Assembly (NCBI RefSeq): GCF_963518105.1
Contig: NZ_CAUQID010000005.1
DNA from: an uncultured Selenomonas sp.
Lineage (GTDB): Bacteria > Bacillota > Negativicutes > Selenomonadales > Selenomonadaceae
DNA: 64,000 nucleotides
Strand: one strand, 5' to 3'
Below the pieces are notes generated by a model, which worked only from the letters and a program-made list of their open reading frames with translations, was not told the origin of the DNA and did not search any database. Positions 57,306 through 63,194 of the stretch are shown here, piece by piece (position 1 is the first letter of the stretch; every line of letters begins with the position of its first letter). The translations under genes and the position numbers were made by a program.

Positions 57306-57349
57306 GTGAAAAGTGGAGCTTTCAGTTTCATCTACTGAAAGCTCCACTT
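57306..57349 (-). terminator. Host terminator that originally followed tRNA-Pro
   Basis: 15-bp perfect stem aagtggagctttcag/ctgaaagctccactt, followed on the minus strand by TTTTCACAAT. Confidence 0.75.
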
Positions 57350-57353
57350 ATGT

Positions 57354-57407
57354 CCAAATAAATGGTCGGAACGACAAGATTTGAACTTGCGGCCTCTTCC
57401 ACCCCAA
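57354..57407. repeat. att direct repeat, distal copy (orphan 3' 45 nt of tRNA-Pro plus 9 nt of flank)
   Basis: 54/54 identical to 63109-63162. Confidence 0.95.
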
Positions 57408-57523
57408 ACATTCTAAAGGACTATGGATACGCTTCCAAACAATAGAAACACTACGCATTAACAACTTTTTCTAAGGGCATCAAGCACCACTTTGATGCTC
57501 TTATAAAGAGTTGCTAATTCTGC

Positions 57524-57552
57524 TTGCGCTTTTCCTCCATCACCTGTATAAT
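57524..57552 (+). promoter_or_regulatory. Promoter of the micro-ORF toxin candidate
   Basis: TTGCGC, 17-nt spacer, TATAAT. Confidence 0.6.
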
Positions 57553-57625
57553 GCACAGCGAACCCCTTAGGCATAGGCGGCTACTTCTTCACCTCTCCGA
57601 CTCTATAAGCGGGAGGTGGTGCAAT

Positions 57626-57697
57626 ATGAGTTATTACGAGTTTATCCTAATTCTGGTACTCGTCACTAGCTTGATCGTTGCTGTAAAAAAGAAATAA
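57626..57697 (+). CDS. 23-aa hydrophobic peptide, candidate type I toxin (Fst / holin-like-toxin style)
   Basis: SD GGGAGGTGG 9 nt upstream. Sequence MSYYEFILILVLVTSLIVAVKKK is one TM helix plus a Lys tail. The SD is sequestered in a hairpin. Below the ORF-track size cut-off. Confidence 0.5.
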   Translation: MSYYEFILILVLVTSLIVAVKKK

Positions 57698-57778
57698 CCG
57701 CCCTACTTTGACACGGTAAGCGGTTATTCCCGTCTTTCTGTGAAGAAGTAGCCGCCTTATAGGGGTTCTTCTCTTTGT
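57684..57778 (-). ncRNA. Candidate antisense antitoxin RNA (about 95 nt)
   Basis: Runs from the promoter at 57785-57813 to the hairpin terminator. It contains no ORF and is fully complementary to the last toxin codons and the 3' UTR. Confidence 0.4.
57693..57728. terminator. Shared hairpin terminator of the convergent toxin and antisense units
   Basis: AATAACCGC/GCGGTTATT is a 9-bp perfect stem that can be extended with a bulge. It is followed by TCTTTTTT on the minus strand and by CCCGTCTTTCTG on the plus strand. Confidence 0.6.
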
Positions 57779-57784
57779 GTCTTT

Positions 57785-57813
57785 ATCATAGCAAACGCAG
57801 CCAACTTTTGCAA
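57785..57813 (-). promoter_or_regulatory. Promoter of the antisense RNA
   Basis: Minus strand: TTGCAA, 17-nt spacer, TATGAT. Confidence 0.55.
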
Positions 57814-58155
57814 GGCTTTCTAAACGCTGAATTTTGCAAAATATTTGTGAGCGGGTATATATATTATTCTGTGTGTCTCATTCCCCCGCGCCGGCACCCG
57901 CGCCCCGCCGCCTGTGAGCGGGTGCAGGGAGACACTCCCCCCATTCATTTCACAGAGAGCAGACACATACCAAGGCAGCGCTGCCGCGCGTGAGCAGGTG
58001 TGGATGTGTGTGTATAATTCGCATAGGTTCTTGATTGTCTTATTTCCTCAATGTGTAAATTTAGACCACCCTCTATTTTTACACTCTAAGACAACCTCCG
58101 AGCCGTGTTAAATAAAGTCCTTTTTTAATTTTATTTACAAATGTCCTCAACTTCA

Positions 58156-58184
58156 TTGACTTTATATTTACACTTTGTTACACT
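58156..58184 (+). promoter_or_regulatory. Promoter of the serine recombinase gene, overlapped by TTACAC repeats
   Basis: TTGACT, 17-nt spacer, TACACT. TTTACAC/GTTACAC words at 58167 and 58177 lie in the spacer and the -10. Confidence 0.5.
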
Positions 58185-58228
58185 CATGACATCAACAACA
58201 GTGTCAGCAGTCAAAGGAGTGTTGCAGC

Positions 58229-58804
58229 ATGAAAGTTGGATACGTGAGAGTGTCAACCGTAGAGCAGAACGAGGAGAGGCAGACCCGTGATCTGCAAGAA
58301 GCAGGAGCAGAGCGCCTCTTCATTGACAAACTGAGCGGAAAAGACACAAAACGCCCCGCCTTGCAGGAAATGCTAGATTTCGTGCGTACAGGTGACACCG
58401 TGATAGTTTCTGAATACTCACGTCTGGCACGCAGCACACGTGACCTATTAGATATCATCCAGACCCTGCGGGACAAAGGCGTAGCAGTCACGAGCCGTAA
58501 AGAATCCCTTGACACATCCACGCCGCAAGGAAAGATGATGCTAACAGTTATCGCAGGTATGGCAGAATTTGAGCGGGCGCTTATGCTGCAGAGACAAAAG
58601 GAGGGGATAGCAATAGCAAAAGAACAGGGCAAATACAAGGGCAGACAAAAAGCCGAGAAGCCCGAACAGTGGCAGGTATGGCGGGAACAATACCAGACCA
58701 GACAGATCACAGCGACAAGGCTAGCTGAATTGTGTGGTGTCTCTCGTCCCGTGGTTTACCGTTGGATGAAAGAACAGGCGCAAGCCCCTATCTGTGGGAG
58801 GTGA
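58229..58804 (+). CDS. Small serine recombinase (resolvase/invertase family) with a C-terminal HTH
   Basis: MKVGYVRVSTVEQNEERQ (catalytic Ser motif), SRLARSTRDLL, and the C-terminal motif ATRLAELCGVSRPVVYRW. Confidence 0.92.
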   Translation: MKVGYVRVSTVEQNEERQTRDLQEAGAERLFIDKLSGKDTKRPALQEMLDFVRTGDTVIVSEYSRLARSTRDLLDIIQTLRDKGVAVTSRKESLDTSTPQGKMMLTVIAGMAEFERALMLQRQKEGIAIAKEQGKYKGRQKAEKPEQWQVWREQYQTRQITATRLAELCGVSRPVVYRWMKEQAQAPICGR

Positions 58805-58808
58805 TAAT

Positions 58809-59264
58809 ATGGACAAAGACACACAAGACACACAGCACCCCCCTAAAAAGAGAGGACGAAAAGCCACAGGCAGACGCAGAAGGCAAATGTATCTCACCGA
58901 TGAGGAGAGGGAGCAGCTTATGACCCTGCTGCATGACATCAGGCACGATGAGCCCCCCATTCGCTACAATGCCATAAAGACACAAGCAGAGGAGGAATAC
59001 ACAGCCGCTGTAAAGAGTGAGGCGCAAGGCTCTAACAGACCCGTCCATACCATCAGCTATTACAGAGCAGAGGCGCTCTATCACCTGATTGATATTCCTT
59101 GCAAACTTACGCCGTACAGAAAAGAAGTGGCACAGATGAAAGACCAACTAGAGCATGAGCGTTGGCAAAAGCAAGGCATGACAGATGAGGAACTGAGAGC
59201 AAAGAGAGCCGCCGAGGAAATGGAACATTGGAAGCGCATTAATGCAGATTGGCTAAATCCCTAA
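58809..59264 (+). CDS. Hypothetical protein (151 aa) with a very basic N-terminus
   Basis: ATG 58809 is preceded by GGGAGGTGA, which includes the recombinase stop codon. The segment PPKKRGRKATGRRRRQMYLTDEEREQL resembles ribbon-helix-helix/MobC-type leaders, but no firm family assignment is possible. Confidence 0.6.
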   Translation: MDKDTQDTQHPPKKRGRKATGRRRRQMYLTDEEREQLMTLLHDIRHDEPPIRYNAIKTQAEEEYTAAVKSEAQGSNRPVHTISYYRAEALYHLIDIPCKLTPYRKEVAQMKDQLEHERWQKQGMTDEELRAKRAAEEMEHWKRINADWLNP

Positions 59265-59270
59265 AGCACA

Positions 59271-59307
59271 AGCCTTTTGACACTTTGTCAAGGGGCTTTT
59301 CTATTTT
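59271..59307 (+). terminator. Rho-independent terminator after orf151
   Basis: agccttttgaca/tgtcaaggggct followed by TTTTCTATTTT. Confidence 0.75.
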
Positions 59308-59617
59308 ACCTATCAATAACGGTTATGTACAGAATAGATATTTTGACTATTTAATAAATCCAGTAATATCAATGCTCTACGGGTAATTTGTCTATGGAAC
59401 TTTATTGGTGGCACACAAGGAGAAGGGAAAACGCTTTTTGCCTTGACACCCCTGCTGCATTGTGGTAATGCAAGATATCAGCAAAGAGGAGGGAGAGAAA
59501 TAATAGCACTTCTCTCTTCTCTCCTATGCAGCATAACCAATACAGCAGAGAGAGTATGTGTGAAAATTTATTTTCTATACCCTATTGACAAACCAGAATG
59601 ATTATGTTACGCGCGTA

Positions 59618-59880
59618 TTATATAATTATATAAACTTTAAGATACTTAAAGTACCTAGTTAGTTAACTAAAGACTATGCTACTACTACTCTAATAAAAAT
59701 AATAACTTATAAGCTATTATTTATAGTTCTTAATAGACTATTACACTAAAGCTATATAACTATATCTCTTATAAGCTATCCCCCTTATCTTATTTGTCTT
59801 AATAGCTATACTCTCTCTCTGTTTGTCTTATAAGCTATGCTATATAGCTATATGTCTTGAAGATACTTAATAGCAATAAC
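59618..59880. repeat. AT-rich palindrome and iteron block (origin-like)
   Basis: 16-bp palindrome TTATATAATTATATAA (59618-59633) and 12-bp palindrome TTAGTTAACTAA (59659-59670). AAGATACTTAA occurs twice (59639, 59860). CTTAWWAGCTAT-like words lie at 59706, 59729, 59768, 59798, 59827 and 59866, plus 59985. Confidence 0.6.
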
Positions 59881-60210
59881 TCCTAAGGTGCATAGTGGTA
59901 GAAGTGCAATAAACTAGCGTACAGAACATTTGGAGACACAGTTATGCACTGACACACCCCCATAGAGACAACAAAGCCCTATCCCTTATAGCTATGAGGA
60001 TGAGGGCTATTTTTGTTTGTCTTTTTGTTTATGTGTCTATGAAGGCATCATAGGAGCATATTCATAGCACACTCGCAAGCTAGTGTATTTTGAGCCTCTG
60101 AAATGTGTGAGGGTATACCAGGGTATAGGCTGAGCATTTCAATGTCTCTATCGTGAGGAGGGCTTCACAAAAACGGAAAAATATAAGGGATTAGACACAT
60201 ACCTATCCCC

Positions 60211-60408
60211 CTATCTTTTGTCTTTCGCTCTGAACGTCATTTCATGACCCAATACAGAGAGCAAAGCTGAGAGGTCTTTTACTGTGAGAGAATTGCGCTG
60301 AAACTTATTGTGCAGCCCCTTCTCGTGCAACCCTGCTTTCATCGCTAACTCTTTGAATGTCATACCCTGAGTACTTGCGAGGGCTTTCAGTTCCTCTTTC
60401 AAATCCAT
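60211..60408 (-). CDS. Small Xre/Cro-like HTH protein (65 aa)
   Basis: GGAGGT SD. MTFKELAMKAGLHEKGLHNKFQRNS fits a helix-turn-helix. Divergent from the orf158 operon. Confidence 0.7.
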   Translation of the reverse strand: MDLKEELKALASTQGMTFKELAMKAGLHEKGLHNKFQRNSLTVKDLSALLSVLGHEMTFRAKDKR

Positions 60409-60439
60409 AGCCGCATACCTCCACTCATAAAATTATACC

Positions 60440-60495
60440 TTGACAGGTTGCGTTTTCGTGACTATTATGTCTTATGAGGTCACGTTTTCGCAACC
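60440..60495 (+). promoter_or_regulatory. Rightward promoter embedded in a 17-bp-arm inverted repeat
   Basis: TTGACA, 17-nt spacer, TATTAT (60440-60468). The arm GGTTGCGTTTTCGTGAC (60446-60462) faces GTCACGTTTTCGCAACC (60479-60495). Confidence 0.55.
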
Positions 60496-60503
60496 ATACT
60501 TTC

Positions 60504-60720
60504 GGACATTTTTGTCCATGTTCAACATCCCGCCATCCCTTGAATTATCGGCAAAATCCCCCACACAGGACTTTTTGCCAAATTTGGCAGAAACCCAACT
60601 TGAACATTTTTGTCCATGTTCAACATCCGTTAATCATCACTAAGGGTACAACCTACTCAATTCTGAGTAGATTCACCATAGAGGGAATTTTGAACATTTT
60701 TGTACGAAATCCCGCCATCC
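60504..60720 (+). repeat. Modular direct repeats in the long leader of orf158
   Basis: The 27-nt repeat 60504-60530 versus 60602-60628 is 26/27 identical, and each copy contains GAACAT-N8-ATGTTCA. A partial third copy lies at 60692-60704. CGCCATCC occurs at 60531 and 60713. There is a perfect palindrome TGCCAAATTTGGCA at 60576-60589. Confidence 0.7.
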
Positions 60721-60755
60721 ATTTTTTCATCACACTTTGCAAAGGAGAAAACACC

Positions 60756-61232
60756 ATGCAGAAGACAAACAACCAGATCACCAACCCCGCCGCTACTCCT
60801 TCTGTCACCATCACCACGATCACCAACGAGGGAGAGACAACCCACACCATCACCGATCAGGAGGCTGTCACTGCCATTCAAGAGGCGTACGAGGACGCTA
60901 AAGCATACCGTGAGGATGTGCTGAATGACCTTGTGCAGCGTGCGATCGACAAAAGCATTGATGAGAAGTACCGCCGAATTATCGGCAACATGAGCGGCTT
61001 CCTTGCTGATTTGTCTATGAGACCTTCAGGCGCGGCATATCAGGGCTTCACCCACAATTACCACCTTGCTATGTCCCACCTCTGCAAAGCTGTCTATGAA
61101 CAGGCGGTGAAGGACTTTGTGGAGCTTCCAAACACCATTGAGAGACTGAGGGAAGACTTCCACGATCGCACCGCTGAACATATCCATCCTTATGACTTCC
61201 GCTATGAACCCTCCTATCCCATTGCGGATTAA
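60756..61232 (+). CDS. Hypothetical protein (158 aa)
   Basis: ORF-track entry 60474..61232 trimmed to ATG 60756 (AAAGGAGAA SD; MQKTNNQITNPAAT...). No recognisable motif. Confidence 0.65.
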   Translation: MQKTNNQITNPAATPSVTITTITNEGETTHTITDQEAVTAIQEAYEDAKAYREDVLNDLVQRAIDKSIDEKYRRIIGNMSGFLADLSMRPSGAAYQGFTHNYHLAMSHLCKAVYEQAVKDFVELPNTIERLREDFHDRTAEHIHPYDFRYEPSYPIAD

Positions 61233-61258
61233 GGAGACACACAGCGCATAGGGGCTAA

Positions 61259-61285
61259 GGGCTTCCCATTGGGAGGCTCTTTTTC
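61259..61285 (+). terminator. Rho-independent terminator after orf158 (possibly partial)
   Basis: gggcttccc att gggaggctc followed by TTTTTC. Confidence 0.6.
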
Positions 61286-61327
61286 TATCATCACACCCGC
61301 CATCCATCAGGAAGGAGACAACACACC

Positions 61328-61642
61328 ATGCCAACAAAGACAACCACCAAAGCCGAATCATTCGCGGGGCTCTCCACCATCGAACAGGAGACAGTCATCA
61401 CCATTGACCGCGAGACACGCCGCGCCCGTATCTACACCAGTGATACCCGCTTTATCAACAAGCTCGATAAGCTCTATGAGCGGAAGAAGGTGCATCGCAA
61501 TGCAGACGGGATTACGGCGGTAGAGTATGAAGTCCCTGAGAAGCTTGTGTCATTCCGTCGGCGTTTGATGAATCTCACCGATGAAGAAAAGCGGCAAAGA
61601 GTGGCACACTTGCACAAAAAGAGGGAGGAGAATAAAGCCTAG
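61328..61642 (+). CDS. Hypothetical protein (104 aa), Lys/Arg-rich
   Basis: GAAGGAGA SD; MPTKTTTKAESFAGLSTIEQETVITIDRETRRARIY... No recognisable motif. Confidence 0.65.
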   Translation: MPTKTTTKAESFAGLSTIEQETVITIDRETRRARIYTSDTRFINKLDKLYERKKVHRNADGITAVEYEVPEKLVSFRRRLMNLTDEEKRQRVAHLHKKREENKA

Positions 61643-61783
61643 AATCAATTCTATTCATTCTACACTCCTAAATTTAGGGGTTTTGACACATTGAAATACT
61701 TCACGCGATACTTTATATGCGTCGATGATTTCAATAGCCGTAAACAGCGAACTAGAGCGTAACAGACACATAGACACCAGAGA

Positions 61784-61816
61784 GAGCTTCCCATAGATCA
61801 GGGAGGCTCTTTTTTT
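61784..61816 (+). terminator. Rho-independent terminator
   Basis: gagcttccc...gggaggctc followed by TTTTTTT. The stem sequence is nearly the same as in the 61259 terminator. Confidence 0.75.
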
Positions 61817-61980
61817 GTGTCTTTCTGTCTGGCTACTACATCCGCTTGCGCGGGGAGACAACAAAGCCCGATCACTCTGTTTGTCTTTCCCGTGTGCTTT
61901 TTATTTACAGGTGCTACACACTGCGCTATCATGAAAGCGTTAATGTGTAGTGCTTCTTTACTGAGCAAAGGAGCATTGCA

Positions 61981-63015
61981 ATGAGCGATACAATCACCAT
62001 GACCAAAGAACAGTTACAGGAAGCTATGAAGGAGGTATTGCAGGGACTTCCCAATATCCAGACAACACCAGCCATCATGCAGGGGGATACCATCACTCTG
62101 AAAGAGTATGGCGGGGATTTCATGGAGCAGAAGCGTCACAGCGTATCTAAGACAACCCACTCTAAGAGTGCCGTCCTCTATCGGAAACACATCCTACCAG
62201 AATTCGGGGAGCAGACACTTGCCTCTATCACCCGTGTACAGGTGCAGAGCCTCATCAATGGCATGGCAGACCAGCGTTACAGCATGGAGACAATCAAGGC
62301 CACAAAGTGTCTATTCTCCTCCATCATGGAGCTTGCCGCCTCTGATCGGCTAATCCCCGCCAATCCCTGTAAGGCTGTCAAATTGCCAAAGGTGGAGAAG
62401 CGCAAGAAGCGTGCGCCTACCCTAGAGGAGTACCAGAGACTGTTAAAGGCGAGCGCAGGACATCGGCTATGGATAACAGTGCCTCTCATCTTCCTCACAG
62501 GCATGAGAATTGGTGAAATGCTGGCTCTCACATGGGATGATATCGACATGGAGAATCGATTGATTCATGTGTCTAAGACGTGGAGCACTGAGAATGGGAG
62601 CGGCAGGGCATACCTGAAAGACACACCCAAGACAAAAGCAGGCGTACGGCACATCCCCATCTGCGATGAACTGTATACCATGTTGAAACGCTATCGGGAG
62701 CAACAGGGTAAAGACAAACACATTGTCATCCCCAAACAGGATGAGGACGCTTATACGCATCCGCAGGTGTTCAGAGGGAAGATATTCAAATACTGGTGCT
62801 ATGCGGCTGATTTGCCGAAAGACATAACACCACATTCAGGCAGACACTACTTTGCCTATCACCTCTATGCGGCAGGAGTGAACCCCGAGACCCTTAGACA
62901 CATCACAGGACACAGTGACATATCAACTCTTCTGGATGTGTACTGCCACACCGATAAACTTTCAGACGAAACCTTGATTCAGACACGCACTGTCATGAGT
63001 GCGCTCTGCGGGTAA
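61981..63015 (+). CDS. int: Tyrosine-type site-specific integrase
   Basis: 344 aa with an SAM-like N-domain. Catalytic residues: TGMRIGE (Arg), HSGRHYF (His-x-x-Arg), GHSD, and the VYCH tyrosine. Promoter TTTACA, 17-nt spacer, TATCAT upstream. Confidence 0.93.
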   Translation: MSDTITMTKEQLQEAMKEVLQGLPNIQTTPAIMQGDTITLKEYGGDFMEQKRHSVSKTTHSKSAVLYRKHILPEFGEQTLASITRVQVQSLINGMADQRYSMETIKATKCLFSSIMELAASDRLIPANPCKAVKLPKVEKRKKRAPTLEEYQRLLKASAGHRLWITVPLIFLTGMRIGEMLALTWDDIDMENRLIHVSKTWSTENGSGRAYLKDTPKTKAGVRHIPICDELYTMLKRYREQQGKDKHIVIPKQDEDAYTHPQVFRGKIFKYWCYAADLPKDITPHSGRHYFAYHLYAAGVNPETLRHITGHSDISTLLDVYCHTDKLSDETLIQTRTVMSALCG

Positions 63016-63108
63016 ATAGTCCCAGTTTGGTAGAGTTTTCCTAGGCTTCTAAGCAAAAAAATGGAGCTTTCAGTATCGCACACTGAAAACCCCGAAAGCC
63101 TTGTATAA

Positions 63109-63162
63109 CCAAATAAATGGTCGGAACGACAAGATTTGAACTTGCGGCCTCTTCCACCCCAA
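63109..63162. repeat. att direct repeat, tRNA-proximal copy
   Basis: 54/54 identical to 57354-57407. Covers the tRNA from the anticodon loop to CCA plus 9 nt downstream. Confidence 0.95.
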
Positions 63163-63194
63163 GGAAGCGCTCTACCAAGCTGAGCTACGTCCCG
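63118..63194 (-). tRNA. tRNA-Pro (anticodon GGG), CCA encoded
   Basis: The minus strand reads CGGGACGTAGCTCAGCTTGGTAGAGCGCTTCCTTGGGGTGGAAGAGGCCGCAAGTTCAAATCTTGTCGTTCCGACCA. It folds by hand into a 77-nt cloverleaf with anticodon loop TTGGGGT. Confidence 0.93.

Follow-up and report, generated by a model that had tools for sequence, protein, structure and literature searches.

A possible orphan Rep-type origin or nick region in a small integrative element at tRNA-Pro of an uncultured Selenomonas sp.

The stretch of DNA analysed here (the window; 64,000 nucleotides of contig NZ_CAUQID010000005.1, assembly GCF_963518105.1) derives from an uncultured Selenomonas sp. and contains a 5.75-kb low-GC island (57349-63162) that is integrated in a tRNA-Pro(GGG) gene. 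Within the island, the spacer between orf151, a gene without known family, and a gene encoding a helix-turn-helix (HTH) protein is free of open reading frames (ORFs) of at least 60 aa (59265-60210). The comparison with related loci suggests that this ORF-free stretch most probably represents the non-coding part of a rep-ori module, which belongs to 4-6-kb integrative plasmid-like elements residing at tRNA-Pro of Selenomonas-type bacteria. In sister elements, the same block follows a gene for a small Rep-like protein. Because this gene is gone in the window lineage, the site would be an orphan, and the chances are about even that the stretch serves as a Rep-type origin or nick region that is usable only in trans.

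Two spacer forms and a shared non-coding block

In total, 29 related loci were fetched, and all of them that extend far enough adjoin a tRNA-Pro(GGG) gene, mostly between the genes for NfeD/FloA and FapA. Among these loci, the spacer between orf151 and the HTH gene occurs in two forms, one free of ORFs and the other one with a Rep-like gene. The ORF-free form (790-1180 bp, 36-40% G+C) is present in the window and in the loci L005/L007, L011, L012, L013/L016/L017 and L019/L020, of which L016 originates from a human oral metagenome. The ORF-carrying form, which encodes a protein of 177-181 aa, is present in L001-L004, L008-L010, L015 and L022/L023. The homology of the window to the ORF-carrying form extends from the recombinase gene via orf151 through a conserved non-coding block, designated module U, to position 59433; it is interrupted up to about 59615 and resumes at an AT run. 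In the Rep-carrying relatives, module U is located directly 5' of the ribosome-binding site of the Rep-like gene. There are also smaller relatives. The locus L027 of Selenomonas noxia ATCC 43541 (NZ_GG749280.1, 233269-243814) harbours a minimal element of about 4 kb at tRNA-Pro consisting of the recombinase gene, two copies of module U, a 183-aa Rep-like ORF, the AT run and the integrase gene. The flanks of the window are about 77% identical to this organism, which is a culturable reference strain and as such a convenient experimental entry point. The small element of L025, also at tRNA-Pro, carries the recombinase gene, a 161-aa ORF, a 196-aa Rep-like ORF and the integrase gene. Both minimal elements are devoid of orf151, the HTH gene, orf158 and orf104.

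The Rep-like gene, whose products comprise 177-196 aa in the whole family, is located immediately 5' of a (TA)n run, CTTATAAG-type words and a terminator. In L001 and L022, the gene is followed in this order by a GC-rich hairpin, a 25-33-nt (TA)n run ending with TATATAGCTTTAAG, two or three TGTCTATAGGCT words at distances of about 22 bp, and a terminator hairpin with a subsequent TTTTTGTGTCTTT sequence. L015 has the same AT run with GCTTTAG, words of the CTTATAAG type, the terminator and a GGGTATACTAGGGTATAGGC block, and in S. noxia the AT run directly abuts CTTATAAGTTAACTTATAA. Direct-repeat words of the type TGTCT..GCT / CTTATAAG follow the Rep-like gene in L001, L022, L015 and L027. In the more distant homologue of L025, the gene precedes 23-bp iterons and CTTATAGT words, and the still more distant genes P0042 and P0046 are followed by clusters of ATAG words. 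The ORF-free form shows the same series, except that a filler and a P block (TTGACA, 17 nt, TACG(T/C)GCGCG) abutting the AT run take the place of the gene. The (TA)n run and the (G)CTTTAAG/CTTATAAG words are common to all forms. Judged by its sequence, the block in the window is a homologue of the one found beside the Rep-like gene throughout the family. P0042 is encoded by L028, a contig of 1.9 kb, whose end (1791-1865) is about 97% identical to an internal 75-nt segment at 1078-1160, 711 bp upstream; this end copy may be a repeat, or it may have arisen because the assembly wrapped around a small replicon.

Across the ORF-free stretch, conserved blocks alternate with unconserved spacers. The stretch starts with a terminator-like hairpin on the plus strand (59270-59298), which closes the recombinase-orf151 operon. 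It is followed by module U (59301-59433, plus strand), which shares about 72% identity with L005-L013, has no significant fold and is duplicated in L012, L015, L020 and L027. A variable filler of about 130 bp (59434-59565), which is deleted in L011 and replaced in L012, stands in place of the Rep-like gene. The P block (59566-59615, plus strand) is confined to the ORF-free lineage and contains TTGACA (59585-59590), a 17-nt spacer ending with TGT, the sequence TACGCG and the GC palindrome TACGCGCGTA (59608-59617). Its identity is 72-90% to L005-L013 and 62% in L020, and it is possibly a promoter pointing into the AT run. The AT-only run with the 16-bp palindrome (59616-59634) is the counterpart of the (TA)n run of the relatives, which is 17-33 nt long, varies in length and occurs in every relative having the module except L025. 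The post-TA block (59635-59720) comprises a CTTTAAGATACTTAAAG palindrome, the 12-bp palindrome, GCTACTACTACTCTAATA (59678-59695) and the first CTTATAAGCTAT word (59706); it is 79-88% identical to L005-L013 and about 50% in L020. Next comes an array of direct, iteron-like repeats on the plus strand (59751-59877) with a period of 29-30, in which (TT)TGTCTTAWWAGCTAT occurs at 59768, 59798 and 59827 and a degenerate copy at 59866. The number and the spacing of the repeats differ among the relatives, and the repeat block is only about 50% alike in L020, the most distant ORF-free locus.

The downstream half of the stretch begins with a window-specific segment (59881-59965) that is 45-50% identical to L005-L013 and 27% to L020. 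The adjacent strong terminator-like hairpin (59966-60022) is preceded by an A-tract and followed by a T-tract, is kept in both spacer types and may act in both directions; the identity to L005-L013 in 59966-60025 is 84-88%. Between two convergent terminators, there is a highly conserved GGGTATA block (60089-60150) with the tandem AGGGTATAC-C-AGGGTATAGG (60111-60130), which is 87-88% identical in all ORF-free loci including the distant L020, and the core of which is also found in the Rep-carrying L015. This block is probably a protein-binding site. A terminator-like hairpin on the minus strand (60183-60210), whose sequence is 94-100% identical to L005-L013, adjoins the stop codon of the HTH gene. 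For comparison, the DNA of the neighbouring genes is about 72-78% identical. Thus, an alignment of the homologues, which the sequence-only reading of this DNA had named as a check, revealed conservation for the blocks (72-100% to L005-L013) but not for the intervening spacers (17-68%). It was also observed that a 22-nt repeat (GAGACAACAAAGCCC..) occurs at 59965 and 61855. Moreover, all eight TTTGTCTT words of the window are located inside the island (59793-62718; 0.8 expected). Some of them come after terminator hairpins (60016 and 61880), and a variant, TTTGTGTCTTT, is found at 61812.

The sequence-only reading had described the stretch as origin-like, and most of the features that it listed could be reproduced. 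The only ORFs listed for the stretch encode 45 aa (59249-59386) and 52 aa (59443-59601). As neither of them is conserved in the relatives and the 52-aa ORF is deleted in L011, small conserved ORFs were rejected as an explanation for the spacer. The perfect 16-bp palindrome TTATATAATTATATAA (59618-59633), the perfect 12-bp palindrome TTAGTTAACTAA (59659-59670), the 11-nt repeat AAGATACTTAA (59639 and 59860) and the extended copies TTTGTCTTAWWAGCTAT (59793 and 59822) are all present. The regular spacing of the repeats was recovered by Tandem Repeats Finder as a period-29 array of 3.7 copies (59751-59858), and the plus strand is indeed poor in G (8.3% in 59616-59880). Of the seven copies that had been counted for the repeat word, four match CTTAWWAGCTAT exactly (59706, 59768, 59798 and 59827), the one at 59866 has one mismatch, and those at 59729 and 59985 are degenerate or indel variants. 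The four exact words are the only ones in the window and are confined to 59706-59838. A longest palindrome of 16 bp was matched by 2.9% of 1000 dinucleotide shuffles, and six palindromes of at least 10 bp were observed while 1.7 were expected (0.4% of the shuffles). The chain of local hairpins that had been seen in 59880-60210 is not above chance overall (z = -1.55 and -1.45); the sole significant fold in this segment is the hairpin 59966-60022 (z = -4.48, 0/200 shuffles).

According to its sequence conservation, the Rep-like ORF is a real gene because the L001 and L015 versions are 47% identical and no frame disruption is present. A profile search of the full library yielded only nine proteins of the family, in the alignment of which H74 and H76 (LHxHFLL), W95, Y130 and N134 are invariant. 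Sub-threshold matches were obtained to the Pfam family REP_ORF2-G2P for three members (E 0.079, 0.036 and 0.09) and to phrog_3584, annotated as replication initiation protein, for two members (0.053-0.18). The AlphaFold (AF2) model shows a beta-alpha-beta-beta-alpha-beta core (predicted local distance difference test (pLDDT) 61, predicted template modelling score (pTM) 0.62). The named fold matches in BFVD include Rep proteins of microviruses, CRESS viruses and parvoviruses as well as G2P-domain proteins, besides a few uncharacterised proteins (E 1e-3 to 2e-2). Furthermore, pieces of the S. noxia Rep-like gene were found in contigs of three probable RNA runs, which is weak evidence of expression. 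Taken together, the motifs, the matches and the model make it probable that the Rep-like protein is an unclassified initiator or nickase of the HUH type.

The serine recombinase provides a further hint. A res-like site (58053-58177), which consists of the palindrome GTGTAAATTTAGA/TCTATTTTTACAC (58053-58084) and two further TTTACAC motifs, is conserved 5' of the recombinase gene in L001, L005, L015, L025 and L027. Plasmid resolution systems are useful only to a replicon, whose multimers they resolve. Thus, an element with both a resolvase and a res site presumably replicates as a circle after excision. The serine recombinase is retained in every Rep-carrying locus, and together with the res-like site it has been lost in the Rep-less loci L011, L012 and L013/L016/L017. 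The ORF-free stretch itself was rejected as a res or inversion site because the conserved site of the recombinase lies upstream of its own gene and the GTGTAAA/TTTACAC motif is absent from 59265-60210. Inverted segments were not seen among the relatives.

Use of the orphan site in trans and competing explanations

From these observations, we infer that the Rep-like protein is a nicking initiator, that the block is its target and that the site in the window is used in trans. A full element would be composed of a tyrosine integrase with its attachment (att) sites, a serine resolvase with a res-like site and a 177-196-aa HUH-type Rep-like protein with a presumed origin. The latter would consist of a meltable or extrudable (TA)n run or palindrome, the adjoining CTTTAAG/CTTATAAG words, direct repeats for the protein and a terminator hairpin. 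Such an element would excise through the integrase, the Rep-like protein would bind to the direct repeats and nick at or near the extruded AT run and the CTTTAAG/CTTATAAG words, rolling-circle copying would then proceed, and the multimers would be resolved at res. In the window lineage, the Rep-like gene would have been replaced by about 180 bp of filler with the promoter-like block, and the palindrome of the AT run, a repeat array of increased size and the terminator would have been kept. The orphan site could not fire alone; if it is used, it would be nicked and replicated or mobilised by the Rep-like protein that a sister element inserting at this att site produces. Indeed, two complete Rep-carrying elements are arranged in tandem at one tRNA-Pro site in L008 (5195-12749) and L009, and in L002 and L010, the upstream sequence retains parts of another left end. 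Accretion of integrative mobilisable elements (IMEs) and the use of cis sites in trans have been documented (PMC5704250). Together with the tandem att copies in L008 and L009, this makes a supply of the protein in trans plausible.

The comparative data also bear on the earlier view of the region as iterons plus a DNA-unwinding element. As an origin, it gains support because the same (TA)n/CTTATAAG/terminator block is present 3' of the HUH-like Rep gene in sister elements; as a DnaA-type vegetative origin (oriV), it found no support. No DnaA box TTATCCACA within one mismatch is present in 59265-60210, the three such sites of the island lying elsewhere, and a DnaA-dependent oriV was rejected on this ground. 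Neither an initiator of the Rep_3, RepA or RepB type nor a primase or helicase was detected among the ORFs of the island (Pfam, PHROG). It had also been proposed that one of the ORFs without known family is a new kind of initiator. This idea is disfavoured because homologues of orf151, orf158 and orf104 coexist with the Rep-like gene in sister elements, and they are absent from the minimal Rep-carrying elements. The statement that the window copy lacks a recognisable initiator gene holds true, as tblastn with 10 family members detected neither a Rep-like gene nor a remnant of it in the spacer, the island or the 64-kb window. For the same reason, the spacer was rejected as a pseudogene of the Rep-like gene.

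Several points weigh against an orphan Rep-type origin, among them this very lack of a Rep-like homologue in the window. The Rep assignment draws on sub-threshold profile matches, a medium-confidence model and motifs. A PDB fold search with the model returned only generic ferredoxin-like folds, profile searches of the PDB with the family gave no match, and no relative of the protein was found in the plasmid and phage collections; the family also has no match in NCBIfam, and its profile is absent from IMG/VR. The Rep-less L020 has different repeat words (ATACCTATAGG), which would be surprising for an element without a gene for the cognate protein. At 59678-59695, GCTACTACTACTCTAATA is similar to the nick sequences of pMV158 (TACTACG/AC) and pT181 (TACTCT/AATAGCCGG). 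However, L001 lacks it, and in L015 and L027 it is inverted. It is therefore a lead only, because it is not common to all Rep-carrying relatives. Moreover, no nick site could be assigned, a single-strand origin was not recognised in the stretch, module U being unstructured, and the fact that several Rep-less lineages have lost the resolvase is as compatible with simple decay as with use in trans.

An unlikely alternative is that the stretch is the transfer origin (oriT) of a relaxase-less IME. After excision of the island, a conjugative element residing in the same cell would supply the relaxase that nicks this site, or a sister element's HUH protein would act as the relaxase, and the island would be transferred as single-stranded DNA. 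The island does possess an integrase and att sites, and no replication, relaxase, coupling protein, mating-pore, packaging or capsid families were detected among its ORFs (Pfam, PHROG). Relaxase-less IMEs carrying only an oriT are documented, as are relaxases resembling rolling-circle replication (RCR) initiators in many IMEs of Firmicutes (PMC5704250), and the HUH protein that adjoins the site in the relatives would fit either role. Sequence alone cannot separate an oriT from an orphan Rep-type origin, and replication and transfer origins are inseparable here because RCR initiators can double as relaxases. However, the ORF-free region has no similarity to plasmid DNA, a conjugative helper was not identified, and the AF2 model of orf151 is too poor (pLDDT 59, pTM 0.36) to assign a fold to this protein. 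The resolvase with its res site also indicates a replicating circle rather than transfer alone.

It is somewhat less likely still that the region is a decaying remnant, i.e. an origin that became functionless upon loss of the Rep-like gene and that appears conserved due to recent ancestry and to ordinary promoters and terminators of the flanking genes. This case would account for the absence of the Rep-like gene, for the fact that the resolvase, too, is missing from several Rep-less lineages, for the drift in the length of the (TA)n run and in the number of repeats, and for the low similarity of the post-TA and repeat blocks in L020. However, divergence has built up within the ORF-free lineage (identities to the window of 48-84% for orf151 and 63-85% for the integrase), and yet the P block, the post-TA block, the terminator and the GGGTATA block have kept their identity of 72-100% with L005-L013. 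The terminator and GGGTATA blocks stay high in L020 as well, and the repeat array is enlarged and not eroded relative to the Rep-carrying relatives.

A transcribed non-coding unit is likewise doubtful, and we rate it slightly below decay. In this scenario, the P block would drive the synthesis of an RNA of about 400 nt, which runs through the AT run and the repeats up to the hairpin 59966-60022. Its function would be regulatory or antisense, or it would serve as a primer in the manner of ColE1 and thereby replace the initiator. The -35 hexamer is perfect, its spacer is conserved, all ORF-free loci share an invariant TGT-TACG(T/C)G motif, and the downstream terminator is strong and conserved. 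Furthermore, the relatives have no apparent terminator-like hairpin followed by a T-run in the interval from the Rep-like gene to the block. Thus, the rep transcript should enter the block, and the region is probably transcribed in both forms. By contrast, the P block has a poor -10 element and escaped the promoter scan, and the interior is a repeat array of variable copy number, which is unlike a structured RNA. The sole Rfam match in the window at the gathering threshold is the tRNA, all permissive matches having E values of at least 0.3 and scores far below gathering. RNAalifold applied to five ORF-free spacers, which are fairly similar and thus give low power, yielded a penalising covariation term of +5.96 with 3 of 70 pairs compensated. 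The fold z-scores are not significant for both strands of 59880-60210, for 59580-59890 and for module U, the post-TA block and the GGGTATA block. A structured RNA, which had been put forward as the alternative to an origin and was to be checked against covariance models, was therefore rejected: it has neither a match in Rfam nor covariation, and its z-scores are not significant except for the terminator.

Finally, it seems improbable that the stretch is a binding array for the orf151 or HTH protein, be it a centromere-like or regulatory site, or a pac site for a helper phage. Direct repeats and palindromic words would suit dimeric or ribbon-helix-helix-type binders, the GGGTATAC-N-GGGTATAGG tandem between the two terminators is the best-conserved block that is not a terminator, and the two most divergent orf151 proteins (L015 and L020) accompany the most divergent repeat words. 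However, the minimal elements of S. noxia and L025, which lack orf151, the HTH gene, orf158 and orf104, still have, beside the Rep-like gene, the AT run or iterons together with words of the CTTATAAG type, and likelier operators for the HTH protein are the 25-nt repeats at 60506 and 60604. Neither partition ATPase and terminase genes (Pfam, PHROG) nor capsid genes are present among the island ORFs, and phage DNA or proteins did not match. Genes typical of phage satellites such as phage-inducible chromosomal islands (PICI) or PICMI-like elements, i.e. terS, ppi and cpm, were not detected in the island either (PHROG, Pfam), and orf151 and the Rep-like family are absent from IMG/VR. Arm sites of the integrase were rejected because the stretch is 2-3 kb away from either att core and TTTGTCTT is absent near the att sites.

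Beyond the orphan origin as such, it may be speculated that the Rep-less lineage parasitises its own family, an idea that we consider rather unlikely. Its conserved orphan origin with the enlarged array would either capture the Rep-like protein of sister elements residing at the same tRNA-Pro site, e.g. in tandem arrays, for amplification or transfer, or titrate this protein as an incompatibility decoy and thereby exclude the sister element. The Rep-like protein would then represent an unclassified minimal HUH initiator family that is confined to tiny integrative elements of Selenomonadaceae.

The remaining genes and side features of the island

The G+C content of about 58-60% across the window falls to 38-50% at 57-63 kb. 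The island is bordered by attL (57349-57407), a 59-nt direct repeat of the 3' part of tRNA-Pro that coincides with the drop in GC and is 97% identical to 63104-63162, and by attR (63104-63162), which overlaps the tRNA-Pro(GGG) gene on the minus strand (63118-63194). The first large gene (58229-58804, plus strand) encodes a small serine recombinase of the resolvase/invertase type (Pfam Resolvase, 7.5e-44; phrog_125, 8e-66) and is followed by orf151 (58809-59264, plus strand). Downstream of the ORF-free stretch, there are the 65-aa HTH gene (60211-60408, minus strand), the product of which is Cro/CI-like with weak Pfam and PHROG repressor matches, orf158 without known family (60756-61232, plus strand), orf104 (61328-61642, plus strand), which belongs to phrog_1709 of unknown function (1.4e-16), and the tyrosine integrase gene (61981-63015, plus strand; Pfam Phage_integrase, 2.5e-27). 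The island DNA has no match among phage records, and among plasmids it has only a 52-nt match in the recombinase gene. The families of orf151 and orf158 are small, all their known members coming from metagenome assemblies, and the orf151 profile gave no matches in GTDB genomes or IMG/VR. The basic N-terminus of the orf151 protein, followed by a conserved MYLTDEEREQL segment, resembles relaxosome accessory proteins, which would suit an oriT. It was also observed that orf151 (58887-58915) and orf104 (61568-61596) have a stretch of 29 nt in common, which is 79% identical and encodes M(Y/N)LTDEE(R/K), possibly a shared DNA-binding motif.

Three further features were noticed outside the ORF-free stretch. 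A 23-aa hydrophobic peptide ORF, MSYYEFILILVLVTSLIVAVKKK (57626-57697), is enclosed by a perfect 18-nt inverted repeat (57575-57592 and 57740-57757). This module, which is conserved at the left end of related elements and of which an extra partial copy is located upstream in L002, L008 and L010, is reminiscent of a type I toxin-antitoxin or addiction module. Another conserved AT run, TATATATATTATT (57855-57870), is located between the peptide module and the recombinase gene, with TTGCAAAATATTT in front of it and a GC-rich stretch behind it. This run, which also occurs in L001, L005, L015, L022 and L027, may be a promoter. Lastly, the perfect 25-nt direct repeat ACATTTTTGTCCATGTTCAACATCC is found at 60506-60530 and 60604-60628, 98 bp apart, with a partial third copy at 60690-60703. 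These repeats lie between the divergent HTH and orf158 genes, where a promoter-like site at 60440 scores 11/12, and are probably operators of the HTH repressor.

Significance and comparison with known systems

If the stretch is indeed an orphan Rep-type origin, the 4-6-kb family with its integrase, resolvase and res site, Rep-like protein and origin would be among the smallest self-contained integrative replicons described, and the window element would be a natural initiator-less derivative that has kept the cis site. The family would thus offer a compact system for studying how orphan origins persist and whether they exploit related elements, and the Rep-like proteins would be a candidate for a new family of HUH initiators. 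The origin, the Rep-like protein, the integrase and the att site could also be used as parts of genetic tools for Selenomonas and other Negativicutes, which are hard to manipulate. If the stretch is a decaying remnant only, it would be an ordinary by-product of the turnover of mobile elements.

The actinomycete integrative plasmids of the pSAM2 type also combine an integrase with an RCR Rep protein, are inserted in a tRNA-Pro gene and replicate by the rolling-circle mode after excision. However, they are larger, carry an FtsK-like transfer gene and reside in other hosts than the window family, and as far as tested, the proteins of both groups are unrelated. Iteron-containing theta origins as in plasmid oriV regions and phage-inducible chromosomal islands have in common with the window an AT-rich meltable stretch beside direct repeats. 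In contrast to them, the repeats of the window are few and irregular, and neither a DnaA box nor a gene for a Rep_3/RepA-type initiator, a primase, a helicase, packaging or capsid redirection is present.

As for the rolling-circle plasmid pMV158, the initiator of which is the HUH protein RepB, its double-strand origin (dso) is likewise comparable. It consists of a nic locus in a hairpin and a bind locus of three 11-bp direct repeats at a distance of 84 bp, and the members of the pMV158 family have two to three repeats of 5-21 bp (PMC1851628). Similarly, the window has an extrudable inverted repeat near two to four direct repeats that are tens of bp away and not covered by an ORF. With respect to the bind locus expected for a rolling-circle dso, i.e. 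two to three or more repeats near the nick region, such repeats are present in the window, and analogous ones in the relatives. The latter encode a small protein with HxH and a conserved Tyr beside the block, and the window contains TACTAC, the first six letters of the nick sequence TACTACG/AC. Unlike in pMV158, no Rep protein is encoded in cis, the Rep-like family is below the threshold of every Rep profile, the repeat period is 29-30 bp and not 11 bp, and the block is located downstream of the gene in the relatives. Moreover, neither a single-strand origin (sso) nor copy-control genes were recognised, and the replicon of the window is an integrative island and not a plasmid.

With regard to the missing enzyme, the element of the window resembles relaxase-less mobilisable genomic islands (MGIs), for which the use in trans of an oriT as the only transfer function has been documented (PMC5704250). 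It is also a small island with a tyrosine integrase and att sites in a tRNA gene, which lacks a DNA-processing enzyme and has kept a conserved cis site. However, MGIs are recognised via the likeness of their oriT to that of a known helper plasmid or integrative and conjugative element (ICE), whereas neither a helper nor a similar sequence was found among the plasmid and phage collections here, and the enzyme probably comes from a sister element within this family. A resolvase, which is not described for MGIs, is present in the island together with the res-like site. The Rep-carrying relatives, in turn, are comparable to streptococcal IMEs, in which RCR-initiator-like proteins (Rep_2, PHA00330, Viral_Rep, Rep_trans/MobT) act as relaxase and/or maintenance replicase (PMC5704250). 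Like these IMEs, L001, L015, L025 and L027 combine an integrase with a small RCR-type initiator-like protein, in some cases without a coupling protein, and tandem accretion at the tRNA att site occurs as well. By contrast, the protein family is a different and unclassified one, the hosts are Selenomonadaceae (Negativicutes), the elements are smaller (4-6 kb), and the window copy lacks the initiator-like protein. The element of the window is akin to known kinds, i.e. integrative elements with RCR-type modules and initiator- or relaxase-less derivatives that keep the cis site.

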